Shown here: positions 32,041 through 55,960 of the stretch, piece by piece
How positions within the stretch are numbered: position 1 is the first letter of the stretch
How the letters are laid out: every line of letters starts with the position of its first letter
Origin: a virus
Strand: one strand, 5' to 3'
Length of the DNA stretch: 64,000 nt
Virus record (IMG/VR): IMGVR_UViG_3300027985_000286
Span: 1 to 64,000 of that record
The notes under the pieces: model-generated
Told to the model about the DNA's origin: nothing
Database searches by the model: none
The model's input: the letters and a program-made list of their open reading frames with translations, nothing else
Made by a program: the position numbers and the translations under genes

Positions 32041-32396
32041 TACACTTCCTTGATAGCTGCGGTCGGGTTTTTCCCATCAAAGATAAGCATATCAAGAACT
32101 CGTCTTACAAATCGCCTGGTCTCTAGATCTTGGATGATAGACGGGGATTCTTTACCAGGATCAACAACCTCACCATTCAACTCAAAAACTACATGGTACA
32201 CTGCAGGATTCTTGGAGTTCTCTACATCTAGAGATAGACCAGTCATGTATACAGTATAACCCTTAAGCTCCCCCGTCAAGACATCAAACGCAACACACCC
32301 CCTTTCCATGTCATAGAAATCACGTATCTTTACACCATTGACTTTGATAGCTCTTTTGGTGATTTTACGGTATAGCTTGGCTAGGAAAGAAAACAT
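32040..32396 (-). CDS. hypothetical protein at the T4 gene 40 position
   Basis: lies between uvsX and 41; synteny only. Confidence 0.45.
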   Translation of the reverse strand: MFSFLAKLYRKITKRAIKVNGVKIRDFYDMERGCVAFDVLTGELKGYTVYMTGLSLDVENSKNPAVYHVVFELNGEVVDPGKESPSIIQDLETRRFVRRVLDMLIFDGKNPTAAIKEV

Positions 32397-33496
32397 TACC
32401 CAAGCTCCACACCAGTGGTAGAAGCAACGATTTCACCTGTCTCTTCATCATACACGACATTACCAATTTTACCTGACCCATCGTTTGACAGAGAGTAAGC
32501 GTTTTTGATGTCTCTCTGGAAATCCTTATTGTTCAAGACAGGTCCCCAGAACTCTTCTGTGGACGTATCTCTTCTGCGCCAACCTTTGTCGTTTTCGACG
32601 CAGGTTCGGCTGTACCACCCCTTCTTACTGGCATCGATGTAACCGAGCGCAGCGCCAATATCTAGGAGGCCAGAGTACGGGTCGATACCACCTTCGAATG
32701 TAACAGTAAGAGGAATAGAGCTACGTTCCTTTACAGCTCTGCTCTTATCAATATCAATAATGAACTCGTAGCCAATAACATCCGTTCCTTCTTTAATCTG
32801 CCGTCTACGGATAATAAAGATGCTGTTAGAGGCATAGTAGCCGCCAGTACCGCCACCCACAATTTGTCTAGGGTGCGTCGCGATTTCAGAGTAAGTATGG
32901 TTAACGCAGATGAACGGAATATCTTTGGTCGCGAAGTGTGGAGTTGACATGCGGAACAGACTTTTGAGCGCCTTGGCTCTTGTCATATCTGCAACAGACT
33001 TCTCAGTTAGCGCGTCCTCTACTTCTTTCTTGGATGCCAAGTTACCAATCGAGTCAACGAACATAATAACATGGTCTTCACGCTTCAGTTCTTCCAGCAT
33101 AGACATCAGATTGAACTTAAGCTCTTCAATATTGGTAACAGGCACATGAATCACTCGATTTTTGTCAATACCGAAGAAGTCAAAGTACGAGAAACTTGCA
33201 CCAAACTCTGAATCAAAGAACACGCAAACAGCATCATCGTACTTCTCCATGAAAGGAGCGATCATGGCCAAGCTGATATTTGACTTGAAGTGCTTGGATG
33301 GCCCAGCAGGCATGATAACACCACAGCTCAACCCACCTCCAAGTTCACCGCTCAAGGCGATGTTAAGAGCGTAGATGGGAGTCGGTACTTCCTTTCTGTC
33401 TGTGAAAAACTTCGAGTTTGCAAAGATCTCTGCCCCTTCCGTCTTAACAGCTTTCATCATACGTAGGGCGAGTGAAGAGTGGTTAGAGATTGCCAT
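32396..33496 (-). CDS. uvsX: RecA-like recombinase
   Basis: AGPSKHFKS, FFDSEFG, VDSIGNLASKKE, DMTRAK.LKSLFR. Confidence 0.95.
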   Translation of the reverse strand: MAISNHSSLALRMMKAVKTEGAEIFANSKFFTDRKEVPTPIYALNIALSGELGGGLSCGVIMPAGPSKHFKSNISLAMIAPFMEKYDDAVCVFFDSEFGASFSYFDFFGIDKNRVIHVPVTNIEELKFNLMSMLEELKREDHVIMFVDSIGNLASKKEVEDALTEKSVADMTRAKALKSLFRMSTPHFATKDIPFICVNHTYSEIATHPRQIVGGGTGGYYASNSIFIIRRRQIKEGTDVIGYEFIIDIDKSRAVKERSSIPLTVTFEGGIDPYSGLLDIGAALGYIDASKKGWYSRTCVENDKGWRRRDTSTEEFWGPVLNNKDFQRDIKNAYSLSNDGSGKIGNVVYDEETGEIVASTTGVELG

Positions 33497-33592: not shown

Positions 33593-36226
33593 TTAGAAAA
33601 AAGACTGGGGAGGACCGTCTCTATCTTCTTCAAGCTTGGGCTTGAACTCTAAGTCCCAACCTATCAGCCCTGCAAAAGACTCGGCAGGCGAGACAAACGA
33701 CTTCTGGAAGATAGTTTCTCTGTCAACATATTGGTGAAGTTTAAACTCAGGAGGCAGTTCCTCTCTGAACGCAATCACATCTACATGATGGTGATTGGGC
33801 TTGAGCATAATATAGCGGATTTTCTCTTTATCTGCAATAGGAGGGATACTCTTAATCTCAAGCTTTCTTAGTATTGCATTATGGTAGATAGACCCCCGAA
33901 TGTGGGCTTGTACGCCCTTCACAGTAGGCATGCCTTTTGAGTCTGAGTACTTCTTGATACCATTTACACCTCTAGGCACTGCAATGGTTTCTACTGGCAT
34001 TGCTTGGTATTCTACCTTAACACCTCTGAAAAGTTCAAAGAGCGCTTCCTGGTCTTTCAGTAGACACGTCATGTACACCTTTTTTAGATACTCTCGCGCC
34101 CACTTTGGCGTAGACGACTTTACCGACTCAAGCCCCTGTACCTTCAAGTCAGGCTCGTAGTACCTAACGCCTTCGTTATCCCAGACTGCCATGGCGTAGT
34201 GTTTCTTTGAACTCCAGATCGCTACCTCTGCAATAGCCTCTCTCTTCATAAAGAGTTTCTGATCGTAACCGTTCAGGTACTCTCTTAAATTCTCGCAGGA
34301 CTGGTTGATAACAGGCTGGATCCTGGTTTCACAGAACTTATCCAGCATGGTAACGATGTCGTTGGTCGACGCTTTGGGGTTGAACTTGGTATACCTGTTG
34401 ACGATGTCACTAAGGTCAACGTACGATGAGTCTGTATCTGAGTATATCCACCTGGACTTTGTATCACCTAACACAGACATCAAGAACTCATCGATATCAC
34501 GAGATGCCCACCTTACTGCAGTCTGCCCACCTGTTGTGATTGCCTCTGCAACATCAATCTTGAAGTATTGGAAGAACTTGTTGGAGATTGCGCCATAACC
34601 AGAGTTCATAGCAATCTTGAGTGCCATCTGCATGGCATCCTTAGCTGCAACTGCGTTTTCGTAGAACTTCTTGTCCTCCTCGGTTGTTGCATCGACCTTC
34701 TTTTGTTTGAGCGCCAGCATCTCTTTCTTCACAACCTTTCTTTGGTTGTAGTAGAACTGCATCATCTCGCTAAGGAACGACCTGAAGTCTCTTCGGTACA
34801 AAGAACCATTAGGTGTAACACACAGGTTCAATGTCTTTGCGTAGTGCAGCAGAGTTTCTGATACCTCTTTGTTGACGCATGTATCAATGCTTACAGCGTC
34901 AATGTCACAGTCAAACTCAGAAGACTTTGCGTACCTAATTGCATCTTGGTCGTTTGACTTCATCAACGCTTGTCTAAAGTCAGACCTAGACACCCAGGTT
35001 TCCGGACCAAGATTCTGGTGCATGATAAGGTGTGGATACAGAGACGCAAAATCGAAAGATACAACCCAACGATACTTCCCTGCCTTAGGCTCCATGACAA
35101 ACCCGCCAGGAAACTCTCGGTATAGCTCTTTATTGGGGAAGACCGGTGGTATCTGTTTCTTGTCAAGGTACAGGTACGAATAGATCGCGTTGGTCCACAA
35201 TCTGGTAGTACCTAGCGTATCTGCGTAGTTTGACATCGTCAAGTAAGACAAAGCATACGTGATGTCTAGATACTTGAGTTTTCTATCTAGCTCAACAACA
35301 AGCTCAACGTCAACGATGTTGTAAACCTGGTAAAGCTGAGGATTCTCTCGTGCTAGATCCTGAAGGTTGTGGTTGCTGTAAGCCACCTTGTTACCTACAC
35401 CTTCTGCCTGAGCAATAAAGCCCAAGCGATACGATTCTCTTGTCAGGTACCTGTGCTTCTTGTAAAGACTGATATAGTCAAGGTCGGTCATACCTACGAT
35501 GTCAATCTTCTTGACCTCGTTTCCAAAATTAACTGTAGTCTCGACAACAAAAACACTCTCGAACGGACTGAGTTTTTTCGCCCATGTTTCACCCAAGACC
35601 TTACAAATGCGGAAGTACAGATACGGAATATCAAAAATCTCTGTATTCCATCCGGTGAAGTTATCGGCATTCATGGATGCCCAGAACTGAACAAATGCAA
35701 CCAATAAGTCGTGCTCACTATCAAACTTCTTATGCACCACGTTCAAGTGGGATATCATCGGGTCACTAGAATCAAAATCATACAGGCTCAGGCAAACGTA
35801 CGTATCTGTGATATTATCGTGTACGGTCAGGAGGTCAACAGGGTACTTTGCTTCTTCTGGATTTGGAAACTCGTCTGCATTAACCTCAATGTCCAAGGTT
35901 AGGGTTCTAATCTTACTCTTATCGTACTCAATCTTTCCGTACCTGTTGCATACCTCTTCCAGAGCAAAATCAGATGTACCGCAAAAGCTAACCCCTTCAA
36001 CACCTTTGTACGACTTCAGGAACTGCGATGCGTCTTTAGCTGAGCTAAAGCTCTTAGGTTTCAGAGATGTTCCGTAATAATCGGTATAACCAGACTCAAA
36101 GCTCGGGTCCCTTTCCCAGATAGTCGGCTCTAGCTCTACTATCACATTCTTTGTGTCTACATCATCCTGTTTTTCTCTTACCAGTACAGTGTTTCCCCAT
36201 CTACGATAGAAAGTGTAAAATGACAA
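33593..36226 (-). CDS. 43: family B DNA polymerase gp43
   Basis: LDIEV, GWN...FDIPYL, YN..DV, SFDFASLYP, K...NS.YG, YSDTDS; TTG start after GAGGTG. Confidence 0.96.
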   Translation of the reverse strand: MSFYTFYRRWGNTVLVREKQDDVDTKNVIVELEPTIWERDPSFESGYTDYYGTSLKPKSFSSAKDASQFLKSYKGVEGVSFCGTSDFALEEVCNRYGKIEYDKSKIRTLTLDIEVNADEFPNPEEAKYPVDLLTVHDNITDTYVCLSLYDFDSSDPMISHLNVVHKKFDSEHDLLVAFVQFWASMNADNFTGWNTEIFDIPYLYFRICKVLGETWAKKLSPFESVFVVETTVNFGNEVKKIDIVGMTDLDYISLYKKHRYLTRESYRLGFIAQAEGVGNKVAYSNHNLQDLARENPQLYQVYNIVDVELVVELDRKLKYLDITYALSYLTMSNYADTLGTTRLWTNAIYSYLYLDKKQIPPVFPNKELYREFPGGFVMEPKAGKYRWVVSFDFASLYPHLIMHQNLGPETWVSRSDFRQALMKSNDQDAIRYAKSSEFDCDIDAVSIDTCVNKEVSETLLHYAKTLNLCVTPNGSLYRRDFRSFLSEMMQFYYNQRKVVKKEMLALKQKKVDATTEEDKKFYENAVAAKDAMQMALKIAMNSGYGAISNKFFQYFKIDVAEAITTGGQTAVRWASRDIDEFLMSVLGDTKSRWIYSDTDSSYVDLSDIVNRYTKFNPKASTNDIVTMLDKFCETRIQPVINQSCENLREYLNGYDQKLFMKREAIAEVAIWSSKKHYAMAVWDNEGVRYYEPDLKVQGLESVKSSTPKWAREYLKKVYMTCLLKDQEALFELFRGVKVEYQAMPVETIAVPRGVNGIKKYSDSKGMPTVKGVQAHIRGSIYHNAILRKLEIKSIPPIADKEKIRYIMLKPNHHHVDVIAFREELPPEFKLHQYVDRETIFQKSFVSPAESFAGLIGWDLEFKPKLEEDRDGPPQSFF

Positions 36227-36237: not shown

Positions 36238-36957
36238 TTATGATAGGCTTTCTATGACTTCTTTTAGTACCATGTGGACTGTTCTTTCCGCTACGTGGTA
36301 ATTATAGGTTTTGGATAGAACAGTAACTCTAGCACAATCTGTGCTGGAAGAAAACATATTGTCCAAGAGGTAAGCAAAGTCTCTCCTCTCTTCTGATAGG
36401 TTCAGCGCGTTATGCGGATTAGCAACCCAAACAAAACCGGCCTTTCCTCTTTTGATATCTTTCTCGTAGTGACCAATAAAGGCTTTGATCTGGTCAATAC
36501 TATCATCTACCAAGATTGGTGCATGTCCGTAAGGCGTGTTCTTTCTGATGAAGTCAACTTTGGTTTCGTACAGAGGAAGGCAATCAATTTCGTCTGGCGG
36601 CTTACACGAAACGGCACTAAATTGAGTTGAGCTGTCAAACGCAGACAGAACATCAACGATGTTATTTTCTCTTAACCTCTTGGTTTTAGTGCTTGACCCA
36701 CAAGAAGATAAGAGGTGCGTACCTTGAAGGTGTCTGGCTAGAACCCTGGAGTTCTCTAGAGTGTTAAGGTTTCCGAAAAATTCGCTTTCGTTGAACTTGC
36801 GGACAGACGCGTCGAATTCTTCTTCACTCAGACCAAATCTAGGTAGCTTGTTTGCGTGCCATCCTAAACACTTATGCTCCACTCCGTTCATATATTCGCG
36901 GATACCTTCTTTCCAGTCAAGGATGGTATCGTCTACATCAATGAATGTTTTGTGCAT
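36238..36957 (-). CDS. HAD-superfamily phosphatase / 5'-nucleotidase-like
   Basis: motif I DVDDT, motif II LSS, K, motif IV VDDS. Confidence 0.75.
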   Translation of the reverse strand: MHKTFIDVDDTILDWKEGIREYMNGVEHKCLGWHANKLPRFGLSEEEFDASVRKFNESEFFGNLNTLENSRVLARHLQGTHLLSSCGSSTKTKRLRENNIVDVLSAFDSSTQFSAVSCKPPDEIDCLPLYETKVDFIRKNTPYGHAPILVDDSIDQIKAFIGHYEKDIKRGKAGFVWVANPHNALNLSEERRDFAYLLDNMFSSSTDCARVTVLSKTYNYHVAERTVHMVLKEVIESLS

Positions 36958-36970
36958 CGTACTTTACCTA

Positions 36971-37765
36971 CTAGACTGTTGGCATTTCGGAAATTTCTAC
37001 GGGTGTGATGTTTTTGGTTACAAGGTTTTGCATGTTAAGGTCATCTGTATTCGGGTTCTTTTTCTGCAATAGGTCTGCAATCATTTCTGCAACCTTTTTT
37101 GATTTCAAGGGGTGAACTGCATATTCTTCAAAATCCAGATAAGATCCGGTTGCTTCTCTAAACGTGACAAACCTCTTTAAGCACTGCCAACATTCACCAC
37201 AAGGAACACCATTATGACTATGCCAGCAAGAAGATGACTTCTTGCTGATATCATAAATGCTTACGCCGTGATTCAAGGCCCATCTAACAGCATCAACCTT
37301 AGTCCATCCTCTGTCGGCTAGTGGGAAAACCACTCTGACCTGTTCTTCCTTGAATGGAGACAAGGTGTAGGTTGTAAGACCAGATACCACGTCTCTAAAG
37401 AAGGCGTTCTTATCTGTAGCGTCAATATTTACCTCATCAACCAAAGATCCTAGCCATATCTCATCTGGCAGGAACTGGCAAGCAGCAAGGGTAACAAACA
37501 CTAGGTTTCTCCCTGGAATGTAGATACTACCCTTTAAAGGCTCGCTCTTCTTGGCGACGCAGCCAATACCATTCTTACCCAACCAGTCTACGTTCATGCG
37601 AATAACGTTTAGAGGGAGAAGGGAAACTTCCTCTTTCTCCGATTCTGCTCCGTGCGCATAATAAACGCACACAACATCGTCATCTTTATTTTCTACCTCT
37701 GACAACCTCTTCATTATGAAACTGTCTAGACCACCAGAGTAAAGGATTACAATCTTTTTACGCAT
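36971..37765 (-). CDS. queC: 7-cyano-7-deazaguanine synthase-family ATPase
   Basis: SGGLDS PP-loop, YIPGRN, Zn motif C-x8-CGECWQC..R. Confidence 0.87.
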   Translation of the reverse strand: MRKKIVILYSGGLDSFIMKRLSEVENKDDDVVCVYYAHGAESEKEEVSLLPLNVIRMNVDWLGKNGIGCVAKKSEPLKGSIYIPGRNLVFVTLAACQFLPDEIWLGSLVDEVNIDATDKNAFFRDVVSGLTTYTLSPFKEEQVRVVFPLADRGWTKVDAVRWALNHGVSIYDISKKSSSCWHSHNGVPCGECWQCLKRFVTFREATGSYLDFEEYAVHPLKSKKVAEMIADLLQKKNPNTDDLNMQNLVTKNITPVEISEMPTV

Positions 37766-38150
37766 CGTCGTGTCTCACGTTTTCTTTTTCTACAAGGTTA
37801 TGATGAAGAAGGACGATATTAACCCAAGGGCAAGCCTTCTTTATGATTTCTGCCTGAATCTGGTCATCCTCAAAATGGATATCTATCCGTTTTCCAGAGT
37901 CCTTAAGCATAGTAATCACTTCAGCCTTATGAAGAGCAGAGCTCTCTCTAGTCTTTTGATTGAACGGAAGAGGATTGTAAAACACTCTGTTCGCAATGCC
38001 TAGCCCACCTAGAAATCTTTCTGTTTCGGGCATCTCTTCAAAAGACCTACCTGTGATGATAACGTCAGAGTGACATGGTCGGACCCCAGTCCGACCATGT
38101 CCCATAAAGATTACACCGTCAATATCGAATGAGTTCATACTAGAACTCAT
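37758..38150 (-). CDS. small cap-less HAD phosphatase
   Basis: FDIDGV, IITGRS, HK, HFEDD; overlaps both the MIPS gene and queC. Confidence 0.82.
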   Translation of the reverse strand: MSSSMNSFDIDGVIFMGHGRTGVRPCHSDVIITGRSFEEMPETERFLGGLGIANRVFYNPLPFNQKTRESSALHKAEVITMLKDSGKRIDIHFEDDQIQAEIIKKACPWVNIVLLHHNLVEKENVRHDDA

Positions 38151-39264
38151 TCGTGAGGTAGTAGGTAGGGATCTCTCTGGCAGCTAGGTACTCACATTCT
38201 GCCTTCGCTTCCGAGTACATCATTTGCATTGGAGGTGTCTTCTGAGTCCACGCGCTAGGTCCACGAAGAGAACCTTTAATGCCCAATTCCTGAGCCACCT
38301 TTAGATACCTGATAGCATCAATAACAACACCCGCAGAATTTTCACTATCTTGGACTGACAGCTTGATATCAACTGTAATCTCAGCCCCTCCGAAAGATTC
38401 AAGGATGACGTTGAAGTAAGCAACCTTATTGTCTTTCAGGTACGGAATAAAGGTACTTGGCCCAGCGAACAACGTATCCTTTTCCATAGGAATACCACGT
38501 ATGTCATTCTGAGCCCTAATGACATTCTCTTTGCTAATCTTCTTGGAAGACAGCCTGTTAGGGTTCATCATGTTGGCGAAGTCTGTATTTCCACCAACAT
38601 TCAGTTGCTGATGGAACTTTACCTTGCACCCTCTGTCAAAGGCGAGCTCCTGAATAACCTGAGACAAGATAGATGCACCAACTTGACTACGCATATCATC
38701 ACCAATAAGAGGAAGACCGGCATCAATAAACCTTTTCTCCCACTCAAGGTTAGACGCAATGAATACTGGAATACAGTTTAAGAAAGGAATACCTGCATCA
38801 ATAGCACTCTGCGCGTAGAACTCAGTACCAACCTGAGACCCCACAGGGAGATAGTTAATGAGCATCTGTGCACCACTGTCTCTGAGGGCTTGAGCTACAT
38901 CAACAGGCTCTTCCTTGGCAATTTTGAAATTGATTGTATCGTGGAAGTTCTCCATATGAAGTGAGACACCATCACAAACTCTACCCATTTGAACCGTACA
39001 CTTGTCATCAATCTGAGTATGAAACACGCGGCAACAGTTGGGCTCTTCGAACATTGCAACATGAAGAGGCTTACCAACCTTTCTTTCATCAACATCAAAA
39101 GCAGCAACTACCTCAATGTCTGTTGGTCCATAACCACCGATGTCTTTAAACATAATACCAGGAAGACTATCCTGATTATTGTGACGATAGTAGTTGATGC
39201 CCTGAATCAGGGCAGATGCGCAGTTACCAACTCCCGCGATAGCAACCTTAATTTTTTCAGACAT
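38140..39264 (-). CDS. ino1: myo-inositol-1-phosphate synthase (bacterial/archaeal type)
   Basis: KVAIAGVGNCASALIQG, AAFDVD..KVG, NYLPVGS, NCIPVFIAS, IGDD.RSQVGA, QLNVGGNTDF, SKKISK, DNKVAY, DSENSAGVVIDAIR. Confidence 0.95.
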   Translation of the reverse strand: MSEKIKVAIAGVGNCASALIQGINYYRHNNQDSLPGIMFKDIGGYGPTDIEVVAAFDVDERKVGKPLHVAMFEEPNCCRVFHTQIDDKCTVQMGRVCDGVSLHMENFHDTINFKIAKEEPVDVAQALRDSGAQMLINYLPVGSQVGTEFYAQSAIDAGIPFLNCIPVFIASNLEWEKRFIDAGLPLIGDDMRSQVGASILSQVIQELAFDRGCKVKFHQQLNVGGNTDFANMMNPNRLSSKKISKENVIRAQNDIRGIPMEKDTLFAGPSTFIPYLKDNKVAYFNVILESFGGAEITVDIKLSVQDSENSAGVVIDAIRYLKVAQELGIKGSLRGPSAWTQKTPPMQMMYSEAKAECEYLAAREIPTYYLTNEF

Positions 39265-39341
39265 GTCTGTTTCCTTTAGAGTTAAAGGGTGGAAAGGCCT
39301 AAGGAAAACACCCCAAAAGCGACGCCTTTATGTCAATCTAT

Positions 39342-39370
39342 ATAGTAACACTTTCAGAGATACTAGTCAA
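39342..39370 (-). promoter_or_regulatory. sigma70-type promoter driving ino1-HAD-queC-HAD-43
   Basis: TTGACT-17 bp-TACTAT with TG extended -10 on minus strand. Confidence 0.7.
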
Positions 39371-40691
39371 ACAAAGAGTCTAACGTTCCTCTTTGAGTTG
39401 TTATTTTTGATGCTTTAAACCCAACTCTTGTCAAGGTACTGCCGTTCTTTTCGTTTGTTATGACCAAATTGGTATTGAACCTGTTGTTGGATACGGTTCT
39501 ATAGTCGCCAACGTGACTAAAGCTATCACTTCGTCCTAAACTAGAAAAATAATCATCCAACCTTACTGTTTCTTGAACCGTTGCGAGACCGCCTCTCAGT
39601 GGTCTTGCAACTTTCTCTTGCATGACACCCTCTACAAACCTTAACCAGGTTTCGTCTACATCTCTGGAGTATGATACTGCCTGAGAGTTGTTATAAACTC
39701 TAGAAGAAGCCAGTAGCTGTTTGATTTTCTCTGTAACGCTACTCAATGACTCCAAGTGCGCCCATTTTTCGTGCATTAGCGTCCATGGCATCTCTTTTAG
39801 AACAACAACAGGGCAAGAAAAAGCCTCTTCAATCACACCGTAGCCGAAAGTCTCCATCTTAGCTGGATGGTAAGCCACTTTGGCCTTAGAAATGAAGTCA
39901 ACCTTAGCAGCCCCTGTTAAACTATGTCGAATCTCATACTCCTTAACTCCGTTATCTTCGAGAGACCTTCTGAACTTCTCAGCGCTGGAACCAGATGTCA
40001 TTACTAGAGCTTTGCACTTCAGTTCTTTCACAACTCTAATGAACTCTTCTGGATTTTTTCTATCCTGGTACGTTCCGATAAACAGCAACCCTTCTTTACT
40101 TGGATAGAGGTTCGCGTATTCTAAGGATGGTTCTGCTATGGGTAAAGGAAGGCACACCCCTTTTGATGTTGGTGGTATCAACTTTAGATTATCGTTTGAC
40201 TGACTTCCTATTACCACGTTCTTACTAAGAAGAGACAACAACCATTCTTGGTACGGTCTGTTGAACACTGACTTTTTAGCAAGTAAAACCGATTCCGGGT
40301 TATGGGTGTAGTACACTACTGGAACGTTCAGATCCAAAGATACAATTGGATCAAGAGCCTCTTCATCATTGACAATGATTAAGTCATACACTGATTCTCT
40401 AATAGCGTCAATCAAAGCGTTCCTAAAGTTTACCTGTCTCTCAAAGCAAAGTCCATCACTGAACATGAATATCTTCTTATGGTGGCTATAAGCCAACGGA
40501 TCTTTAGGGCTAACTACCTTGCACTCCTTTTCAACATCTGGGTGCAGTCTTCCTCTCATTAAGGGTGAGTCTACAACAATATCAACAACCCACCCATACT
40601 TCTTCGCCATAAGATGAAACCCCTTGATAAAGGTCCCAACACCACCATTAATAGACAAATATCGATTCGAAACGACCTGACACACTCGCAT
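39363..40691 (-). CDS. GT-B fold (GT4-like) glycosyltransferase
   Basis: N-terminal GGVGT loop, VVYYTH, LFIG....RKN, HPA..ETFGY...E (Ex7E-type motif); ends TLDSLFD. Confidence 0.85.
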   Translation of the reverse strand: MRVCQVVSNRYLSINGGVGTFIKGFHLMAKKYGWVVDIVVDSPLMRGRLHPDVEKECKVVSPKDPLAYSHHKKIFMFSDGLCFERQVNFRNALIDAIRESVYDLIIVNDEEALDPIVSLDLNVPVVYYTHNPESVLLAKKSVFNRPYQEWLLSLLSKNVVIGSQSNDNLKLIPPTSKGVCLPLPIAEPSLEYANLYPSKEGLLFIGTYQDRKNPEEFIRVVKELKCKALVMTSGSSAEKFRRSLEDNGVKEYEIRHSLTGAAKVDFISKAKVAYHPAKMETFGYGVIEEAFSCPVVVLKEMPWTLMHEKWAHLESLSSVTEKIKQLLASSRVYNNSQAVSYSRDVDETWLRFVEGVMQEKVARPLRGGLATVQETVRLDDYFSSLGRSDSFSHVGDYRTVSNNRFNTNLVITNEKNGSTLTRVGFKASKITTQRGTLDSLFD

Positions 40692-40699
40692 GGTAACTC

Positions 40700-41983
40700 C
40701 TAGTCAAAGAGATCATCCAGAGACGATACGTTTGCCGCTTTCGTTTCCAGCCTTTGACTGTGAACCTTAGGTCCAATAGTTTTTGACCACTTAATGAATT
40801 CGTTATAGTCAGTAACTTGCAACAAGGTAGATAGAATAGATTGCCCTTCTCTAGACAACCATTTCAATAGGGAAGACTCTTCCCTAAACAAGGAGTTCAC
40901 GTGGTAGGTGAAATTGGCTATACTAGCAAACGCAGCAGCAACCATGAACACATGATATTGTTCAACTCTGTCTTCAGAAGAAAAATAGTCCCAGCTCCTC
41001 TTTGAAGAGTTTGTTGTCAACGACTCAACCACATCGCTCAAAGAAAACCTAGCACCCACATCACCAAAGTACCTTATGATATCCCTATGGTATTCTTCTA
41101 TTACCTTAACGTTGGTTGTTCCATAGAGCTGAAGCTTACCTCTACTGTTTAGGTAAGACCCGTTACTGAGCTTCATGGTATGAGACGTTGAATCGTAAGA
41201 TAGGTGCGTGTTCTGGTTAAGGTAACCAGTTTGATACAAGATAGCAGAGGGGAAAAGCCTAGCGATGCTTCCAACACCCAAAAGGTGCACGTTGGCTTTG
41301 ATGTCTTCCTCACACGGGAGAACAGGTACAGATGCCGCCCTTTCAATAGCTTCAAGAAGACCGTTACCGATAGACGTACCAGCAATTGATACACCTGCAA
41401 TCTGACAGTGCATGTCTATTGGGACCTCTTTAAGAAGAACCTCAACCCAACGTTGAAACCAATAGATCCCATTACCCTGCACGATCATCATAGGCTTGGT
41501 TTTATAGCCATGGGTCCTAAAGTACTCAATCTGAGATGCGAGATTGTACCCTGACTTCTTAGCGTACGAGTCGAAGTTATCTTTATCAAATCTCTTGCTA
41601 TTCAGGTCATTAATGACTGACCGGTTGTTGACTACAACAGGGACCTCATCAAAAGACATTGCGACTGTTGAGTGCTTCCCTTGTTTTTCATAAACAGCCT
41701 GCCTAAGACTGTCAGTAATCATTTTTCCTAGAGTAACGACCTGTAGGCCTCCCGAATCTGCATGTACGCTAGAAACGCTCTTAAATCTGTCATACGCTGC
41801 ACCAAACTTCTTTTCAGTATGCGCGTTGAACAAAATTCCATAACTATGACCGTGCGCTCCTTGTATAGGAGCAAACACCTCTTTGTCAATCCTATCCAAT
41901 ACGCTGTTGTTCTGGTAGCTTCTACTTAGAGCGAACCGGGTATGACCCATTCCTGAAGCAATGTACTCTAGATTAAGTGGCAT
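40700..41983 (-). CDS. dpdA: TGT-family 7-deazaguanine DNA transglycosylase (DpdA/DpdA2-like)
   Basis: HADSGGLQ, MSFDE, IVQG, HLLGVGS, SYDSTS TGT-barrel motifs; next to folE; ends SLDDLFD. Confidence 0.85.
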   Translation of the reverse strand: MPLNLEYIASGMGHTRFALSRSYQNNSVLDRIDKEVFAPIQGAHGHSYGILFNAHTEKKFGAAYDRFKSVSSVHADSGGLQVVTLGKMITDSLRQAVYEKQGKHSTVAMSFDEVPVVVNNRSVINDLNSKRFDKDNFDSYAKKSGYNLASQIEYFRTHGYKTKPMMIVQGNGIYWFQRWVEVLLKEVPIDMHCQIAGVSIAGTSIGNGLLEAIERAASVPVLPCEEDIKANVHLLGVGSIARLFPSAILYQTGYLNQNTHLSYDSTSHTMKLSNGSYLNSRGKLQLYGTTNVKVIEEYHRDIIRYFGDVGARFSLSDVVESLTTNSSKRSWDYFSSEDRVEQYHVFMVAAAFASIANFTYHVNSLFREESSLLKWLSREGQSILSTLLQVTDYNEFIKWSKTIGPKVHSQRLETKAANVSSLDDLFD

Positions 41984-41985
41984 GT

Positions 41986-42663
41986 TTAGTTTCGGATTAG
42001 GCTAGTAAACTCTTTTCTAGTACTCTCATTTTCAATGAAAGCACCGTTCAAAGATGTTGAAGTCGTCTCCGATCCAGCATCTTCAATACCCCTCGAAATC
42101 ACGCAATAGTGCTTCGCAGTAATAGACACTGCCACATCATTCGTATCAAGGATGTACTTGAGCGCCTCTGCAATCTGCACAGTAAGCCTCTCTTGAACCT
42201 GAGGCCTGCGTGAGAAGTAGTCCACAATGCGGTTAATCTTGCTCAGGCCAATCACCTTAGCCTTAGGGATATAGGCTACAGTAGCCTTGCCATCAATAGT
42301 AACACCGTGATGCTCACACGCAGACATCACCCGAATGCCACGCTCTACGAGCATCTCATCGTACCCCATCTTATTCTCGATGGTGGTACACTTAGGGAAA
42401 TACTCTGGCTTCAAACCCCAGAACAGCTCGTTGACGAACATCTTAGCAATTCGGTTGGGTGTATCCCTCAGAGAGTCGTCTTGCAGGTCCATGCCTAAGA
42501 TAGACCAGATTGACTTCATGTGAGCACGAATATCTTTAATCTTTTCCTCGTCATCACCTCTTAGATGAGTCTCGATGACAGGGGTTTGCAACTTGAGCTT
42601 TAGGAGGTGCTCTTGAACTCTGAGACCCAGCACCTCATCACACTTAGACTTATCCGGCTTCAT
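41986..42663 (-). CDS. folE: GTP cyclohydrolase I
   Basis: DTPNRIAKM, SACEHH, IGLSKINRIV, RRPQVQERLT, H.C..SRG. Confidence 0.96.
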   Translation of the reverse strand: MKPDKSKCDEVLGLRVQEHLLKLKLQTPVIETHLRGDDEEKIKDIRAHMKSIWSILGMDLQDDSLRDTPNRIAKMFVNELFWGLKPEYFPKCTTIENKMGYDEMLVERGIRVMSACEHHGVTIDGKATVAYIPKAKVIGLSKINRIVDYFSRRPQVQERLTVQIAEALKYILDTNDVAVSITAKHYCVISRGIEDAGSETTSTSLNGAFIENESTRKEFTSLIRN

Positions 42664-42680
42664 TCGGTTTCCTTAAAGGT

Positions 42681-42715
42681 AAGAAAGGGTGGTGTAGGAG
42701 ACTCCTACACCACCC
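42681..42715 (-). terminator. intrinsic terminator immediately upstream of folE
   Basis: GGGTGGTGTAGGA-3 nt-TCCTACACCACCC (13-bp stem) then TTTCTT on minus strand. Confidence 0.75.
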
Positions 42716-42738
42716 AGCTTAGTTAACACCGGTGGGCA

Positions 42739-43257
42739 TCAGTAAGCCACACCATCTCGCATCTCATCCACAGTGTCCCGCACGTAGCTGGAGGCGAGGG
42801 CCTTGTTGCTGTTGAAGAGGTCCACAGCGGCCTTCTCGATGACCGCCTTCTCCGACTCCTTCACCTTCTCCATATCCGACCCAGCCTTCAGGAGGTCGGC
42901 GTCCATCATTTCCTTGACCATCCGGATGACGTCCCCCTTCTTGCTGGAAATCAGCGTGCGCTTCCGATACACGCTCTTGCCGTTACGATACTTGACCTCA
43001 CGGTCAATGTGCACCACGTTGCCGTCGCTCGGGGCCGGGGCCGGGGCCGGGGTGGTCACCGCCTCTTCGGGCTGGGCCGGGTCAACATCCACCAGCTTCA
43101 GGGCCGGCGCAGCCTGCGGGATGCCAGCCTTGGCCCACCGACGGGCGCTGGAGACCGAAACACTGTGCTTCGCGGCCGCAGCAGCCGGGCTCATACCGTT
43201 GGACATATCCGCGATCACCGCATTCTTCACCTTCATGTCAATTGCGTTCGAGTTCAT
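42739..43257 (-). CDS. HTH-containing early protein, GC-rich
   Basis: GMS...AAAKHSVS.SSARRW HTH, PA-rich linker; AAGGAG SD before ATG 43257. Confidence 0.7.
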   Translation of the reverse strand: MNSNAIDMKVKNAVIADMSNGMSPAAAAAKHSVSVSSARRWAKAGIPQAAPALKLVDVDPAQPEEAVTTPAPAPAPSDGNVVHIDREVKYRNGKSVYRKRTLISSKKGDVIRMVKEMMDADLLKAGSDMEKVKESEKAVIEKAAVDLFNSNKALASSYVRDTVDEMRDGVAY

Positions 43258-43328
43258 GTTGTTACTCCTTTCCATTGTCTAGTAGTGTTCTGGCCCTTGC
43301 CAGCGTGTTTTGTGTTTCCACAGTATGA

Positions 43329-43356
43329 ATAATACTGTCTTTTAGATATCTTGCAA
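43329..43356 (-). promoter_or_regulatory. sigma70-type early promoter
   Basis: TTGCAA-16 bp-TATTAT on minus strand. Confidence 0.6.
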
Positions 43357-43400
43357 GGCTTTTCTGCACAAGAGTTTCTTATGAGAATGATAAATTTTAC

Positions 43401-44282
43401 TTATGTCCCCCAGCTGTTCCCGAACAGGTCAATGTGAAGCCTGGGGCTGTACCGGTAGCCATACTTCATTGCAAGGTTAGCCACAGTGGTTGAATTCTTG
43501 ATGTAGTCTTCATAAGTACCACCAACAGGCATCAGGTACACCGGTACGCTAAACGGTAGTTTGGCATATTCCATGAACTCGCCAACCTCGAACACATCTT
43601 GTTCATCCTGAACAACGAACTTGAGAACTGGTTGTGCTCCGGATTCAAACAACGTATTGACCGCATCGTAAGACCATGCCTTCTCCCTACTCTCTCCAGA
43701 TGCTCTCATCTTCGGTGAGATTGACAGTGTGATGCAATCTAGGTCAATAAGGCTCCCTCCGGCGATTAGAGCACCGTTAACACACCAAAAGTCCGACGGC
43801 CACGCTTGCGTGCCATTCGTCTCAAACGTGATATGCTGAAGTCCGTTCTCACGACAGAGTATGTCAATCGTCTCTAACAGACCTTTAGCGTTCTTCTGAA
43901 GCAGAGGCTCCCCGCCTGTAATAACAAGGTGCGTGTTCTCGTCAAACTGCTCATCAAAGAACAGTCCCCCGTTCACCTCAACAATCTTATATGCTAACTC
44001 CTTAGGGGTCATCTCAGTGCTCATATGCTTGAAACGCTTATCCCAAGCAGCGTAGCTATCACACCCAGTCTTGACAAGAGGAAGATCTTTGATGCTACCA
44101 TATTGATAAAATAGAGCAGCTACGGAGTCACGTTCCTTGGACTTCTGACCTTCAGGCATGCCAAACCCTGCGCACTGAAGATTGCATCCAAAGAGGCGCA
44201 CAAACACCGAAGGAGTGCCTACATGCAGGCCCTCACCTTGAATAGACTTGAACACCTCAACAACAGTTAGATTGCTGCTCAT
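43401..44282 (-). CDS. queE: 7-carboxy-7-deazaguanine synthase (radical SAM)
   Basis: E.F.SIQGEG..VG.PSVFVRLFGCNL.C...CDS, ITGGEPLLQ, FETNGT, SISPK, LKFVV, SPRLH. Confidence 0.92.
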   Translation of the reverse strand: MSSNLTVVEVFKSIQGEGLHVGTPSVFVRLFGCNLQCAGFGMPEGQKSKERDSVAALFYQYGSIKDLPLVKTGCDSYAAWDKRFKHMSTEMTPKELAYKIVEVNGGLFFDEQFDENTHLVITGGEPLLQKNAKGLLETIDILCRENGLQHITFETNGTQAWPSDFWCVNGALIAGGSLIDLDCITLSISPKMRASGESREKAWSYDAVNTLFESGAQPVLKFVVQDEQDVFEVGEFMEYAKLPFSVPVYLMPVGGTYEDYIKNSTTVANLAMKYGYRYSPRLHIDLFGNSWGT

Positions 44283-44790
44283 CTTTCTTCTCCATATACT
44301 TTTCCATGAACTCTTCGTAGCGGATAGACATTGTAGCATGGTACTCACGAGGGTTCATATTACACTTTACTGATGGCTTGCTTGAGTTCGTCAACCCTGC
44401 CGATAGGGTGAAAACCTTCTGCCTACTATGACCTGCTCCCCTACCAGACCAGTACACTACTTCTATGAGTTGCGTCTTGTCTTTATTTAGAATCCTGAAG
44501 ATCTCAGAATCGTTAACTCTAAGGAGTGCAGTACACCTAGCCATCACTTCGATTTGTTTCTGCTTGGGTAAGCAAGACTGCTCTGTGGGATATACCTTGA
44601 TTGTTGAGCCGTCAACAAGGTTGAGGTAATCTGTAAGGCCACCAACAGGACAGTTGGTGTTAGCGTCAATGGTTACGCAGTAGTAACCTGTCTGCTTGTT
44701 TGATTCCTGAATGAATCCAATGCCATCGAAAGCATAGTACAGTTCTGGATATAGAGTTCGTTTCTGTCTAATAGCAACAACTCTTGTCAT
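44257..44790 (-). CDS. hypothetical protein
   Basis: GAGGAG SD; overlaps queE start. Confidence 0.6.
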   Translation of the reverse strand: MTRVVAIRQKRTLYPELYYAFDGIGFIQESNKQTGYYCVTIDANTNCPVGGLTDYLNLVDGSTIKVYPTEQSCLPKQKQIEVMARCTALLRVNDSEIFRILNKDKTQLIEVVYWSGRGAGHSRQKVFTLSAGLTNSSKPSVKCNMNPREYHATMSIRYEEFMEKYMEKKDEQQSNCC

Positions 44791-45208: not shown

Positions 45209-45727
45209 TTACACCTTATCACCAACGTAGAAAAGACCATCAGACTCCAGGTCAGGAGTAAAGAACGTTTCCTTGCTCTTAAGGAATTTGCCGGCAGGGA
45301 AGAACTTACCGTTGTCGTCGGTATGATCCTTCACTACACGTAGAGCATACGCAGATTTCTTTTTGAACTCCACCGGGAAGATTATGCAGTCCACACCATG
45401 CTTGAGCTTGTACGTCTCAGCTGTTCGGTAAGCGCACTCGTAGGTAGGACACAGCTTGCTCATGTTACTATCAAAGACTCGACGCATCCCTTCATCGGCG
45501 TCCATCCCCATAACATACGCAAGGCCATAAGCAACAACCAGGAGGTCCAAGCACCCGTCTGCCATCTCCTTGATATCCTTTTTCTCGAAACCCTCAAAGA
45601 CCTCTCCAGCTTCCTCTCGGATGAGGTCTACGTACATCGAAACCGGACCCCAGTCCAGATTACGAACGTCCCCTCTCACATTGCCAAACACCTCGTTCAT
45701 TACTGCAACATCTGAAAAGTTGCTCAT
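45209..45727 (-). CDS. MazG/PRA-PH-like NTP pyrophosphohydrolase
   Basis: LIREE..E, E.ADG..DLLVV.YG, V..SNMSK, GK.LK. Confidence 0.85.
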   Translation of the reverse strand: MSNFSDVAVMNEVFGNVRGDVRNLDWGPVSMYVDLIREEAGEVFEGFEKKDIKEMADGCLDLLVVAYGLAYVMGMDADEGMRRVFDSNMSKLCPTYECAYRTAETYKLKHGVDCIIFPVEFKKKSAYALRVVKDHTDDNGKFFPAGKFLKSKETFFTPDLESDGLFYVGDKV

Positions 45728-46203
45728 GCTCCACCTTCCTTGCGAGCCCGAGCCTTATCAGCTCGCATCATATACTTGGGTTTCAGAGACCAATTCTTCT
45801 TGTCTGCGTAACTAAGAATCTTGATCATACCCAAGTGCGATACATTGGACTCAGCGTCCGCCTTATCGATGAGTTCACACAGTCCCCATTCCTCTAGAAG
45901 AAGTGCGATACGGTTGCGCCGTCCGTAGTCTTCATGCGTCATGGTGGACGGGCGACCATCCTGAGCAAACATTTCCTTGAAGTGCAGGATTGCGTACTCA
46001 CCCTGGCGATGCAGGATGTGGCAACTCTGCCAAAGCACGCTACCCTTTGCAGGCACGCCAATTCGGGTAAGAGACTCCCTGATCTTGTTGAAGTCTTCGT
46101 GGCTCTTCAGCTTGATTCGAATGCCATCGCCGTCAAACACATCGGTTTCAATTCCTTCAACTTCCGCCAGAAGGGTACCGTTGTTAGTCGTATCAGAACT
46201 CAT
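45724..46203 (-). CDS. regA: translational repressor
   Basis: DF.KIRESLTRIG, LWQSCHILHRQG.YAI.HFKE.F..DG, RRNRIA.LL.EWGL. Confidence 0.95.
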   Translation of the reverse strand: MSSDTTNNGTLLAEVEGIETDVFDGDGIRIKLKSHEDFNKIRESLTRIGVPAKGSVLWQSCHILHRQGEYAILHFKEMFAQDGRPSTMTHEDYGRRNRIALLLEEWGLCELIDKADAESNVSHLGMIKILSYADKKNWSLKPKYMMRADKARARKEGGA

Positions 46204-46610
46204 TTTACTCTGCCTCCAACGTTCATTCTCTGCTTAATGTCGTCAATTTGCTCTTTAGTTAAAACCTTAAGAGCATCAACTGCCTTTGCCTTACTGTAAC
46301 CGTAATAACGCATAACAACGTCCAAATCATCGTATGCTGACTTTTTAGCCCACTTTCCTCTGCGTCTCTTCGACCGGATTGAGTTAAAAAGGTAGTCGAA
46401 GTGCATCTGCTTACTTACCAAAGGATGCTTATTCATCTCATTGGCATACAAGATCGTATCTACGTGTTGACTCAAAGCTTGCACGATGATAAAAGGATCG
46501 TAGGTCCTAACGTTGTCTTCTCCGTTTTCGCCCCTAGTAGCATCAACCTTAGTAAACGTAATCGAGTCTAGGATCTCAAACAAGTCAGCCACGTTAAGCC
46601 TTCCACTCAA
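46200..46610 (-). CDS. 62: clamp loader small subunit gp62
   Basis: Y.PFI...ALS, ANEMN, HFDYL...IR, KWAK, YYGYS..KA; true start may be slightly downstream. Confidence 0.9.
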   Translation of the reverse strand: MSGRLNVADLFEILDSITFTKVDATRGENGEDNVRTYDPFIIVQALSQHVDTILYANEMNKHPLVSKQMHFDYLFNSIRSKRRRGKWAKKSAYDDLDVVMRYYGYSKAKAVDALKVLTKEQIDDIKQRMNVGGRVK

Positions 46611-47550
46611 CAGAGGCCATTAAGGAAACCGCTAGGGCAACCAAATGAACCTCCTTGCTTGGAACAATACCATCAAACCGTTGGTACTCTTCAAGGGTCA
46701 AGATAACCTCAGGAATTGACGAAGGCTTAACCTTCTCGTAGAGAACCTTATAGAGACCCTCGTAGATAGCAGACGTGTCGTACCCTGATGTGTCCGCTGC
46801 CCACTGTCGAATCTCTTTGAAGTCTCTATTCTTCATTAGCTCAACAAGCTTGTCAACGTTAGAACCTTTGAGTGCCTCAAGGATACCAACGTCAATTTTC
46901 CCGCTCTTAGCGTAGCTGTTAAGCTCTGTAAGGACCTTACGGTTATCGGGGAAATAACGCTGGATAACTGCAGCAACCACTTTCTTATCGTGCACAACAC
47001 CTTCCAGTTCCAGAATCTGGATAGTCCTCTTCATCAGCTGAAGAGCAAGCGGTGCTTTCTCAGTTGACGGGATTGAGAAATCAATCTGCTTCAACCGAGA
47101 GCGAAGAGGTTCGATAATAAGATTGGGATAGTTGCAGGTGAAGATAAAGCTACAGTTCTTGCTGAACTCTTCAATCGCAGACCTCAAGGCAGGCTGAGTA
47201 GAGTTCTTCTGTAGGTGGTCAGCCTCATCAAGGATTACAACCTTGCCGTTACCTGTTAGGCTGGTGGTAGATGCAAACTGCCTAATCTTGGTACGTAGTA
47301 CATCAATACCACTATCTTCTGATGCTGGAATAAACATCCAATCGCAGTCCAGCTCGTTACACAGAGCTTTCGCAGCAGTTGTCTTGCCAGTTCCCGGCGG
47401 TCCTGACAGAAGTAGATTGGGCATTCTACCGCTATCTACAATAGAGAGCATTAGCCCAGATGTTGCAGCTGGAAGGATGCAGTCTTTGATTGTTGCTGGT
47501 CTATACTTTTCTGTCCAAAGGTGTTCGTTTTCGTTAAATGAAATCGTCAA
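46594..47550 (-). CDS. 44: clamp loader ATPase subunit gp44
   Basis: LW.EKYRP.TI..CILP, GPPGTGKTT, ILDEAD, Q.ALR..IEEFS, EPLRSR; start approximate. Confidence 0.93.
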   Translation of the reverse strand: MTISFNENEHLWTEKYRPATIKDCILPAATSGLMLSIVDSGRMPNLLLSGPPGTGKTTAAKALCNELDCDWMFIPASEDSGIDVLRTKIRQFASTTSLTGNGKVVILDEADHLQKNSTQPALRSAIEEFSKNCSFIFTCNYPNLIIEPLRSRLKQIDFSIPSTEKAPLALQLMKRTIQILELEGVVHDKKVVAAVIQRYFPDNRKVLTELNSYAKSGKIDVGILEALKGSNVDKLVELMKNRDFKEIRQWAADTSGYDTSAIYEGLYKVLYEKVKPSSIPEVILTLEEYQRFDGIVPSKEVHLVALAVSLMASVEWKA

Positions 47551-47602
47551 AACACATACTCCCCGCAATGTGCCCTCCCTGGCACTGTCCATCTCAACGC
47601 TA

Positions 47603-48307
47603 TTATACGTTGAATTCGCTGCTATCTGCAACAGCCATCACATAAACAATCGGCTGGTTTTTGTTGATAAAGAGCGCAATGAGAGAACCTTTACGCTTTG
47701 CGATCTTAACAGTATAGTCCCCACCAAGCATCTTGAGGTTGTCAGAGTCAAAGACAATCTTGAACACCTTATCAGACGAACATAGCTTAGTCTTGAATGA
47801 ATTGCCCTTGCTTCCTGTGTCCAACTTCACATCTAGCGCAGTAAATGAAATATCCGATCCGTCACCAACAAACGCAAGGTTAGGAAGCTTCAGTGTAGCC
47901 GACGCGCGATAAGCAGCAACAAGCTTATCGTTGCCCAAGTCAAACTCAACAAGAATCTCATCAGGTACCAGATCTCTATCGGAGAATCCAGTAATCATTC
48001 GCTCATCTGCCATGTGGTACTTAATGGCAAGCTCTCCCTTCTGGTCCTGAATTGACAGGAAATCGTCGTCGACGAACTCAATAAGAGGAGACTCGACCAA
48101 AGAAAGAACAGACAAGAGTTCCATAATGTCGTACACCACAAAGTTGCCCGGGAAGGCACCAACCTTTGCAGTGAGCATGAGGGTATTATCAGGGCTCTTA
48201 ACACGAAGAATATCAGAGTCCTTCTTAATCATCACGTTACGATGAATCGTGCCTGCATTTTTGAGAATATCAAACAGCTCTTTTGTTACCTTTACCTGAC
48301 TAGTCAT
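47603..48307 (-). CDS. 45: sliding clamp gp45
   Basis: ILKN...I, F.VYD..ELLSVLSL, ATLKLP.L, NLKML.GDY.V; synteny 45-44-62-regA. Confidence 0.88.
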   Translation of the reverse strand: MTSQVKVTKELFDILKNAGTIHRNVMIKKDSDILRVKSPDNTLMLTAKVGAFPGNFVVYDIMELLSVLSLVESPLIEFVDDDFLSIQDQKGELAIKYHMADERMITGFSDRDLVPDEILVEFDLGNDKLVAAYRASATLKLPNLAFVGDGSDISFTALDVKLDTGSKGNSFKTKLCSSDKVFKIVFDSDNLKMLGGDYTVKIAKRKGSLIALFINKNQPIVYVMAVADSSEFNV

Positions 48308-50583: not shown

Positions 50584-50691
50584 TTAACGAAACATGGTCG
50601 CAGAAATCGCAAAGATTGCGATCAGCAGAGCGGCCAGACCTGCGGTAGCGAGGCGGCAAAGGGAAAACGGCTCACAGCTTCGAATAGTCAT
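50584..50691 (-). CDS. 35-aa membrane peptide (not in ORF track)
   Basis: GGAGG SD; one hydrophobic helix. Confidence 0.4.
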   Translation of the reverse strand: MTIRSCEPFSLCRLATAGLAALLIAIFAISATMFR

Positions 50692-51157
50692 ACGCATCAA
50701 CCTCCCATGGGAATTTAATCCAAGTGTTTGCATCTTTATTCACACGTCTTGCTGCATAATCACAAGTGAAAGAGCTATTGGTGTTCTCAATCAATACCGC
50801 AGACTTGCACCTGTCAGAAGTTTGAAATCTGGACATCACATGGTCTAACGTCGCACCGCTATCGTTAATATCATCAACAATCAGCACATTTGACTCACTC
50901 TGAGAAAGTAGGTCAAAGATGCTGCCGTCCTCGTAAGATAGGTGCCCGTTGTCGTTTCTGCCATTATAGTGGCTAACGAAGTAGGTGTAAACAGAGCCAA
51001 CGTTCAACTGATGGCTAAGAATGGTTGCAGGAACCATTCCACCTCGAACCAACGCAAGAATGCAGTCTGGCTTGAAACCTGAAGTTTGAACGAGAAGACA
51101 GAGGTCACGGACATTATCCAACACTTCCTGAAACGACAATTCCTTATCAGCCATCAA
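50672..51157 (-). CDS. type I phosphoribosyltransferase (Gpt/xanthine-guanine PRT-like)
   Basis: LVRGG..PA, VLIVDDINDSGATL PRPP loop, WI.FPWE. Confidence 0.9.
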   Translation of the reverse strand: MMADKELSFQEVLDNVRDLCLLVQTSGFKPDCILALVRGGMVPATILSHQLNVGSVYTYFVSHYNGRNDNGHLSYEDGSIFDLLSQSESNVLIVDDINDSGATLDHVMSRFQTSDRCKSAVLIENTNSSFTCDYAARRVNKDANTWIKFPWEVDAYDYSKL

Positions 51158-51164: not shown

Positions 51165-51686
51165 TCAATAGTTGGTTGGCTCGAAAGGTCTTCCTAAGAC
51201 CTCTTCCCAAGACATCACGTTAACTCCTCTGTTCTTCAGGTAATCTACTCCCGTTAAGTCTCTGTATGCTTCCAAGTAGTATAGCGACTTGACACCTGAG
51301 TTTGCAACTCTCATTGCGCATTGAAGACAAGGCGAGTAGGTCTGGTAAATCACACTGCCGTGAGCAGATACTCCTTCCTTGAGCATCTTGTCTAGAGCGT
51401 TCTGCTCTGCATGGATGACAGTAGGCTTGGTGATGAGCTCAAACCCGCCTCCTGGCCAGAACTTGGCATTGTCCTTAATCTCGCAACAGTTATCATCACC
51501 GGGTGCGGTTCCGTTGTAACCTACATATACGCCCATGGAAGGAGTGACAATACAAGCGCCAACCTTCTTCCTAACTGCGTAGCTTGCATCCTTTATCATG
51601 AAGGCAATCATCATCCATTGCATCGGGTACTTTTCTTGATTGTCCGCGCTGTATGATGGTTTCAAGTGCAGCAGATCATGGTTCAT
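51165..51686 (-). CDS. cd: dCMP deaminase
   Basis: KVGA.IV, GYNGT, HAEQNA, SPCLQC. Confidence 0.92.
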   Translation of the reverse strand: MNHDLLHLKPSYSADNQEKYPMQWMMIAFMIKDASYAVRKKVGACIVTPSMGVYVGYNGTAPGDDNCCEIKDNAKFWPGGGFELITKPTVIHAEQNALDKMLKEGVSAHGSVIYQTYSPCLQCAMRVANSGVKSLYYLEAYRDLTGVDYLKNRGVNVMSWEEVLGRPFEPTNY

Positions 51687-55676: not shown

Positions 55677-55960
55677 TCTTTGCCTACCTTACGTCTCGCC
55701 CAATGGTAGATATCCGTCTTTGAGTGAGCAAGCATCTCGTTCAGGAGCTGAACGATAACTTCAGCTCCCTTAACCGAAAACAGAGACATAACCGCCGAGT
55801 GTTCAAAGTCGGCATTGTTTTGCAGCTCTCCGTAATGCACACTCACCCGATAGTTGTACCGCCGACTTTCCGAGTTCTTTAGCAGCACAGTTGGACCGTG
55901 ATTGTAGATATCGAAGCAGAACTTGTAGAACATGCTAGGCGTGACAGTTTTCATTTTCAA
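55673..55960 (-). CDS. hypothetical protein
   Basis: coupled between genes 55 and 47. Confidence 0.55.
   Translation of the reverse strand: MKMKTVTPSMFYKFCFDIYNHGPTVLLKNSESRRYNYRVSVHYGELQNNADFEHSAVMSLFSVKGAEVIVQLLNEMLAHSKTDIYHWARRKVGKE

Follow-up and report, generated by a model that had tools for sequence, protein, structure and literature searches.

The stretch analysed here (the window) comprises positions 1-64,000 of IMG/VR record IMGVR_UViG_3300027985_000286, which comes from a T4-like phage and is 149,348 bp long in full; the window holds the replication and early-gene half of that record. On its minus strand, a gene for a putative DNA guanine transglycosylase of the DpdA2 family is followed by a gene for a GT-B-type glycosyltransferase (GT) (Table 1). 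The DpdA2 open reading frame (ORF) ends in ...TKAANVSSLDDLFD (i.e. ...NVSSLDDLFD) and that of the GT in ...TTQRGTLDSLFD (i.e. ...QRGTLDSLFD). Both tails fit (S/T)-L-D-x-L-F plus one residue, a type of ending with which phage T4 proteins dock on the gp45 sliding clamp.

A sequence-only reading of this DNA had already pointed to the two endings, and both translations and a count across the genome agree with it. The whole genome has 1615 stop-to-stop frames of 40 aa or more; two of them, DpdA2 and the GT alone, match a strict pattern ([ST]L[DE].[LFIM][FLY] within the last 10 residues). With a looser pattern, applied to the window, the single addition was the late sigma factor gp55; its C-terminus reads ...KVGLDAILED*, a looser tail, and the GLDAILED ending given for it in that reading is correct. 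The codons of the DpdA2 and GT tails differ (15 of 27 bases identical); the tails are therefore not recent DNA copies of each other, and their likeness lies at the protein level.

The transglycosylase is 29% identical to the DpdA2 of Vibrio phage nt-1 over residues 3-412 (tblastn, E 2e-42) and groups inside the tree of the DpdA2 family, which was defined by Hutinet et al. (PMC6884629). It has no match to the Pfam TGT (tRNA-guanine transglycosylase) family, as the same paper reports for DpdA2, and comparing its sequence profile with PDB sequences gave no match; it was a fold search with Foldseek that placed it. The AlphaFold2 model (mean predicted local distance difference test, pLDDT, of 93) matches bacterial and eukaryotic tRNA-guanine transglycosylases with a probability of 1.0 and a TM-score of ~0.5. 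Two segments, DSGG.Q and SYDS, are invariant in a 44-sequence DpdA2 alignment (D76, S77, G78, G79, Q81, D264, S265). The predicted activity is the swap of guanine in DNA for a 7-deazaguanine base, a base exchange demonstrated for the nt-1 and VH7D enzymes only (PMC10516641).

For the GT, every match to the Pfam families Glycos_transf_1, Glyco_trans_1_4 and Glyco_transf_4 fell under its cut-off. Its AlphaFold2 model matches MshA, BshA, PimA and tll1591 in Foldseek with a probability of 1.0, which gives it the two-Rossmann GT-B fold, and the E-x7-E pair (E280 and E288) is invariant among its homologs. The claim that two unrelated folds share a gp45-docking type of tail is supported by the match to T4 and the conservation described below, and every computational check made agrees with it.

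Each tail follows a short linker, as had been proposed, and in both models a confident body gives way to a low-confidence linker and then to a one-turn helix on the motif. Over the final 20 residues of DpdA2, pLDDT drops to 74 and then 57, and residues 422-426 form a short helix. In the GT, it is below 50 throughout residues 419-442, with a helical turn at 437-439.

In T4, the motif reads EKASLDFLFG in gp43 and EPEGLDFLFD in a loop of the DNA ligase; the ligase-loop peptide has been crystallised on gp45 and binds with a dissociation constant (Kd) of ~11 uM (PMC6212786). The gp55 and gp33 proteins carry their sliding-clamp-binding motifs (SCBMs) on linkers and bind a hydrophobic patch of each gp45 protomer (PMC7892883). 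Read directly from the T4 sequence, gp43 ends ...SLDFLFG* and gp55 ...SLDFLYEAND*. The SCBMs of T4 and RB69 (gp43, gp55, gp33 and the ligase loop) have the consensus (S/T)-L-(D/E)-x-(L/F)-F in common with the window tails, and they occupy the same position, 0-3 residues from the C-terminus on a flexible linker. The cognate gp45 clamp and gp44/62 clamp loader are encoded in the same genome there, and likewise here. There are also differences. The middle residue is Phe in T4 but polar (D or S) in the window tails, and the T4/RB69 carriers are replication and transcription factors, whereas the carriers here are putative DNA modifiers, one a base exchanger with the TGT fold and the other a GT-B glycosyltransferase. 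Clamp binding of the T4 and RB69 motifs is known by experiment, while that of the window tails is predicted.

Conservation among homologs, whose absence the sequence-only reading had named as telling against it, was found for both proteins. In a FastTree phylogeny of DpdA2 built without the last 12 residues, 106 of 128 sequences keep the tail (75 canonical and 31 variant) across both main clades, and the clade of nt-1 and VH7D is tail-less. The tail is canonical in 66 of 120 database homologs (25-58% identity), with near variants in many others, and DpdA2 ends with the motif in nearly all of 80 related IMG/VR loci. A C-terminus-anchored profile of 141 sequences gave 2.1-3.8 bits at [ST], L, [ED], [LF] and F, compared with 0.7-1.5 at the preceding 14 linker positions; three of those five positions were part of the anchoring pattern, and the [ST] and [ED] preferences lie outside it. 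Among the GT homologs (~31% identity), ~47 of 53 end LE[SDAG]LF plus one residue. The ending is also selective: in the 80 loci, 89 of 3159 six-frame ORFs end L[DE].[LF]F plus 0-3 residues, and these are 67 DpdA, 15 GT, 5 polymerase and 2 other ORFs. In a complete 202-kb relative (G002), GT, DpdA2 and polymerase are the only long frames with the motif. The closest relative contig, with a gp45 59% identical to that of the window, has ...NLGDLF* on DpdA2 and ...SLEDLF* on the GT homolog.

Two further loci were noted. In L022, which carries the closest GT relative (42% identity; 8690-12062, 16691-17788), the GT ends DIITLF* and DpdA2 PTITLFD*, a shared shortened variant, and the split polymerase ends ITLESFFN*. 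No tailed DpdA3 was identified at 95-125 kb of Campylobacter phage CP220 (DpdA3, full G replacement), where DpdA3 itself was not located; the CP220 polymerase ends TETLEEW*.

The tails of the relatives also resemble that of their own DNA polymerase. In phage ACP17, gp43 ends PSLDDLFE and DpdA2 TTLDELFE; the corresponding pairs are SSLEDLFG and NSLDDLFG in Stenotrophomonas phage Bhz51 (Menderavirus), and SSLESLFG and QSLEELFG in Xanthomonas phage X1. Where the GT is tailed as well, all three agree: TLDDFFS (gp43), SLDSFFD (DpdA2) and SLEDFFND (GT) in BUCT-ZZ01, and ATLEGLFS, MSLEDLFA and STLESLFK in G002. The same agreement of DpdA2/GT tails with the cognate gp43 was seen in six more relatives (G001, G003, G004, G005, G010 and L066). 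The class of ending, LF or FF, agrees in 11 of 13 readable tail pairs (Fisher p = 0.035, uncorrected for shared ancestry). This identity with the cognate gp43 tail is the strongest argument that the tails of the modification enzymes are clamp-binding motifs.

Taken with the T4 comparison, these patterns make it likely, in our judgement, that both tails are T4-type sliding-clamp-binding motifs and that the two enzymes are putatively tethered to gp45. Both enzymes would probably travel with the clamp, with newly copied DNA as their substrate. The Leu-x-x-Leu-Phe face of each tail would insert into a hydrophobic pocket of the gp45 trimer, the same pocket used by gp43, the T4 ligase loop, gp55 and gp33. 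The gp44/62 loader would place gp45 at primer termini and nicks, and each trimer, with its three pockets, could take DpdA2 and the GT along on the new duplex. FolE, QueD, QueE and the QueC-like enzyme would supply the 7-deazaguanine base that DpdA2 puts there in place of guanine; decoration of the DNA by the GT would come after. Four elements of this scheme are inferred: physical binding, the order of the reactions, what the GT acts on, and a higher modification density, if there is one. The sequence-only reading had gone further and coupled base exchange and decoration to the replication fork. The tether finds support in the comparison with relatives, but "at the fork" goes beyond the data: clamps also load at nicks and stay on DNA behind the fork, where they would do as well, and so the fork itself is not needed. 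DpdA insertion has been viewed as post-replicative (PMC10516641).

Several observations weigh against the tether or limit its importance. The first concerns this phage's own polymerase, which ends ...KLEEDRDGPPQSFF* and lacks the contiguous motif. Set against 11 other gp43 C-termini, the tail is split, KLEE-DRDGPPQ-SFF* (33593-33660), by a 7-residue insertion inside the motif; KLEE aligns with SLE[DS] of the others and the final FF with their [LF]F. We looked for a canonical tail reached by frameshift or read-through downstream of the polymerase and found none in any alternative frame. The argument from a shared polymerase tail therefore rests on the relatives and not on this genome. Such a split clamp tail is unusual for a T4-like gp43; one conceivable cause is that clients compete for the three pockets of the clamp.

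Secondly, the characterised members of the family manage without the tail. The DpdA2 enzymes of nt-1 and VH7D belong to the same family as that of the window (29-31% identity) and have the same linkage to FolE, QueD, QueE and QueC, yet those of nt-1, VH7D and phi-ST2 end ...TTAEYPDFKS* or ...RRGTTAEFPAFKEQE / ...TTAEFPAFKEQE. Activity in E. coli, with insertion of preQ0 or preQ1, is on record for the nt-1 and VH7D enzymes (PMC10516641), and the tail is thus dispensable for catalysis. Thirdly, a glycosyltransferase can bind gp45 without such a tail. T4 alpha-glucosyltransferase (alpha-GT) co-purifies with gp45 (PMC13216743, citing Sommer 2004). This enzyme ends ...KEQFDIITK*, with no C-terminal LDxLF tail, and belongs to a different GT family from that of the window. 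In T4, expression level and not clamp binding was found to set the alpha/beta ratio, and clamp binding was judged not to be the main determinant of glucosylation (PMC13216743), so the physiological effect of a clamp tether may be modest.

Structure prediction gave weak support for docking. A complex of three gp45 copies (121-row alignment) with DpdA residues 378-427 scored 0.47, against 0.00 for the best of three controls, which the tool grades as "weak support". At least 50% of contacts are common to its three runs, and the partner pLDDT is at least 38. For calibration, 80 solved complexes and 110 mismatched pairs were scored: 58 of the former and 2 of the latter passed the mark, and the passes at 0.60 or lower were just 7 of the 80 solved complexes and both of those mismatched pairs. 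Because gp45-peptide complexes of RB69 and T4 are solved, the pass may reflect likeness to them only and say nothing on this particular pair. Finally, the gp26-like baseplate hubs of ACP17 and BUCT-ZZ01 end GLDDFFV* and GLETFFA*, respectively; a similar ending is therefore possible on a protein without a known DNA role.

Of the alternatives, the one that survives best accepts docking of the GT but gives it a small-molecule acceptor, either inositol phosphate, as for MshA, or a free 7-deazaguanine base. Docking would then just bring the GT chemistry near DpdA2. MshA, whose acceptor is inositol-1-phosphate, is among the closest solved folds of the GT together with BshA and PimA, and genes for an inositol-1-phosphate-synthase-like and a small phosphatase-like protein lie directly downstream. 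This pair, which sits between the GT and the QueC-like gene, also occurs in Stenotrophomonas Menderavirus phages, Bhz51 included. In many T4-like contigs, however, a tailed GT sits beside DpdA2 and the 10 kb fetched on each side of these two genes include no inositol synthase, and the GT homolog of X1, which is encoded far from dpdA, is tail-less. Both facts strengthen the view that the GT acts on DNA, and a clamp tail is of no obvious use to an enzyme of soluble metabolites. We therefore regard a small-molecule acceptor as rather unlikely. Judged from the clamp tail and the conserved adjacency to dpdA2, the acceptor would be DNA, and the earlier preference for DNA over a small metabolite gains from the tailed pairs that lack a nearby synthase. 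An inositol- or sugar-bearing 7-deazaguanine is a candidate product.

A second alternative keeps the idea of a shared partner but replaces gp45 with the host beta clamp or another replisome protein. The beta-clamp motif is a pentapeptide, QL[SD]LF, which resembles the tails, and one DpdA2/GT clade (L022; P0054, P0058) has the shorter ITLF ending with a beta-like spacing. Nevertheless, the L-x-x-[LF]-F spacing and the flanking [ST] and [DE] fit T4 gp43 and not QLxLF. The phages' own B-family polymerases share the tail, and the partner of that tail in T4 and RB69 is gp45. In addition, every homolog found is in a T4-like context that encodes its own clamp. A partner other than gp45 thus seems quite improbable. 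Least probable of all, to the point of being hardly credible, is a role unrelated to clamps (a degradation tag, DpdA2-GT contact or packaging signal) or a chance resemblance: the baseplate endings and the functional tail-less DpdA2 enzymes speak for it, but the polymerase carries the same tail, DpdA2 keeps it in the GT-less phages ACP17 and Bhz51, which argues against a DpdA2-GT contact, and the motif counts (genome, 80 loci, G002) and conservation in both families exclude chance.

Clamp tethering by gp45 would be a concrete, testable recruitment mechanism for DpdA2 and its partner GT, in which a polymerase-type tail brings both to gp45 on new DNA. The idea of a clamp-bound phage DNA glycosyltransferase is already known from T4 alpha-GT, which associates physically with the sliding clamp and was proposed to modify DNA during replication (PMC13216743); the same arrangement is predicted here. 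Our literature search found no paper linking DpdA to a sliding clamp. A short peptide also holds a modifying enzyme on a clamp in eukaryotes, where an internal PIP box of DNMT1 binds PCNA, so that methylation follows replication. The arrangement proposed here is likewise one of a modifying enzyme on a clamp, by analogy only; there is no homology to this eukaryotic methyltransferase.

If the tether is real, the known clients of phage clamps, so far replication and transcription factors, would come to include enzymes of base exchange and decoration, and a GT acting on DNA would imply a glycosylated 7-deazaguanine that has not been described. The clamp and loader may have to be present for reconstitution, and phages with the tail are expected to carry more of the modification than those characterised so far, which lack it. 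In nt-1 and phi-ST2 DNA, at most ~0.3% of G is modified, and VH7D DpdA2 was assayed in E. coli only (PMC6884629, PMC10516641). It is conceivable, though on balance doubtful, that the tether makes DpdA2, otherwise a sparse modifier, sweep the new DNA and exchange a large part of its guanine, and that the GT follows on the same clamp, a "modification tool-belt". Expression of ACP17 dpdA and dpdL in E. coli gave no product, which a missing clamp and loader would explain if the tool-belt idea were true. Tying the tail to how densely DNA is modified, or to the ACP17 result, is tempting but stays conjecture.

The remaining features of the locus are listed in Table 1. The replication genes lie on the minus strand at 27-57 kb, and the 7-deazaguanine cluster is set among them, as judged from Pfam and PHROG matches. 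The FolE, QueE-like and QueC-like genes are all less than 4 kb from that of DpdA2, and those of gp45, gp44 and gp62 are 5-7 kb away on the strand shared by DpdA2 and the GT. The gp45-type clamp scores 23.9 bits against Pfam gp45-slide_C, slightly below the 25-bit cut-off. No near-identical phage genome was found by megablast of 36900-44400 against 50,697 phage records.

Table 1. Features of the window discussed in the text, in order of position.
Feature	Positions	Strand	Basis or remark
QueD (PTPS)	25175-25654	-	PF01242, 71.2 bits, above cut-off
UvsX	32396-33496	-	
gp43 DNA polymerase	33593-36226	-	phrog_262, E 8.5e-259
QueC-like ATP-pyrophosphatase	36971-37765	-	Pfam QueC, E 3.1e-12
Small PNK/HAD-phosphatase-like protein	37758-38150	-	phrog_415
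Inositol-1-phosphate-synthase-like protein	38140-39264	-	Pfam Inos-1-P_synth, E 5.9e-23
GT-B (GT4-like, E-x7-E) glycosyltransferase, 442 aa	39363-40691	-	8 bases downstream of dpdA2
GT tail TLDSLFD, residues 436-442	39366-39386	-	putative gp45-binding motif
GT disordered linker, residues 419-435	39387-39437	-	
DpdA2-family DNA guanine transglycosylase (TGT fold), 427 aa	40700-41983	-	phrog_10773, E 2.9e-94
DpdA2 tail SLDDLFD, residues 421-427	40703-40723	-	putative gp45-binding motif
DpdA2 linker, ~residues 403-420	40724-40777	-	
FolE (GTP cyclohydrolase I)	41986-42663	-	Pfam PF01227, E 2.4e-58; step one of 7-deazaguanine synthesis
QueE-like radical SAM enzyme	43401-44348	-	weak Pfam matches: Fer4_12, Radical_SAM
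regA-like	45724-46203	-	
gp62 (clamp loader)	46200-46610	-	phrog_225
gp44 (clamp loader)	46594-47631	-	Pfam AAA and Gp44_lid
gp45-type sliding clamp	47603-48307	-	phrog_223, E 1.7e-42; 2170 homologs found
gp46 / gp47	52880-55676	-	
gp55 late sigma factor	55957-56610	-	phrog_234, E 7.5e-45

QueE is annotated at the homologous position in ACP17, X1 and Bhz51. The listed frame of the QueE-like gene, with a GTG at 44348, overlaps an upstream 177-aa ORF by ~90 bases; its true start is probably an ATG near 44282, followed by ...VFKSIQGEG. Nucleotide-pool genes adjoin the replication genes on the minus strand (45209-45727, 50672-51157, 51165-51812 and 52308-52871), coding for a MazG-like pyrophosphatase, a phosphoribosyltransferase, a dCMP-deaminase-like protein and a dATP/dGTP diphosphohydrolase N-terminal domain protein (PF18909, E 1e-19).

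Four further endings recall clamp clients but were dismissed, being either too loose or explicable in another way: DDDMAFFASL* of gp32, ELAFFNIF* of an exonuclease, VKDMFVD* of a rIIB-like protein and RTPDDFF* of the gp26-like baseplate hub (58517-59260, plus strand), which lies on a T-run. Outside the window, at 115996-116985 of the genome (plus strand; L121:497-1486), a 316-329-aa protein of phrog_4400 with no Pfam match ends IGAIIDKIFD*. Its homolog in the IMG/VR genome G004 ends TIDRIF*, and the protein may be an additional clamp client.

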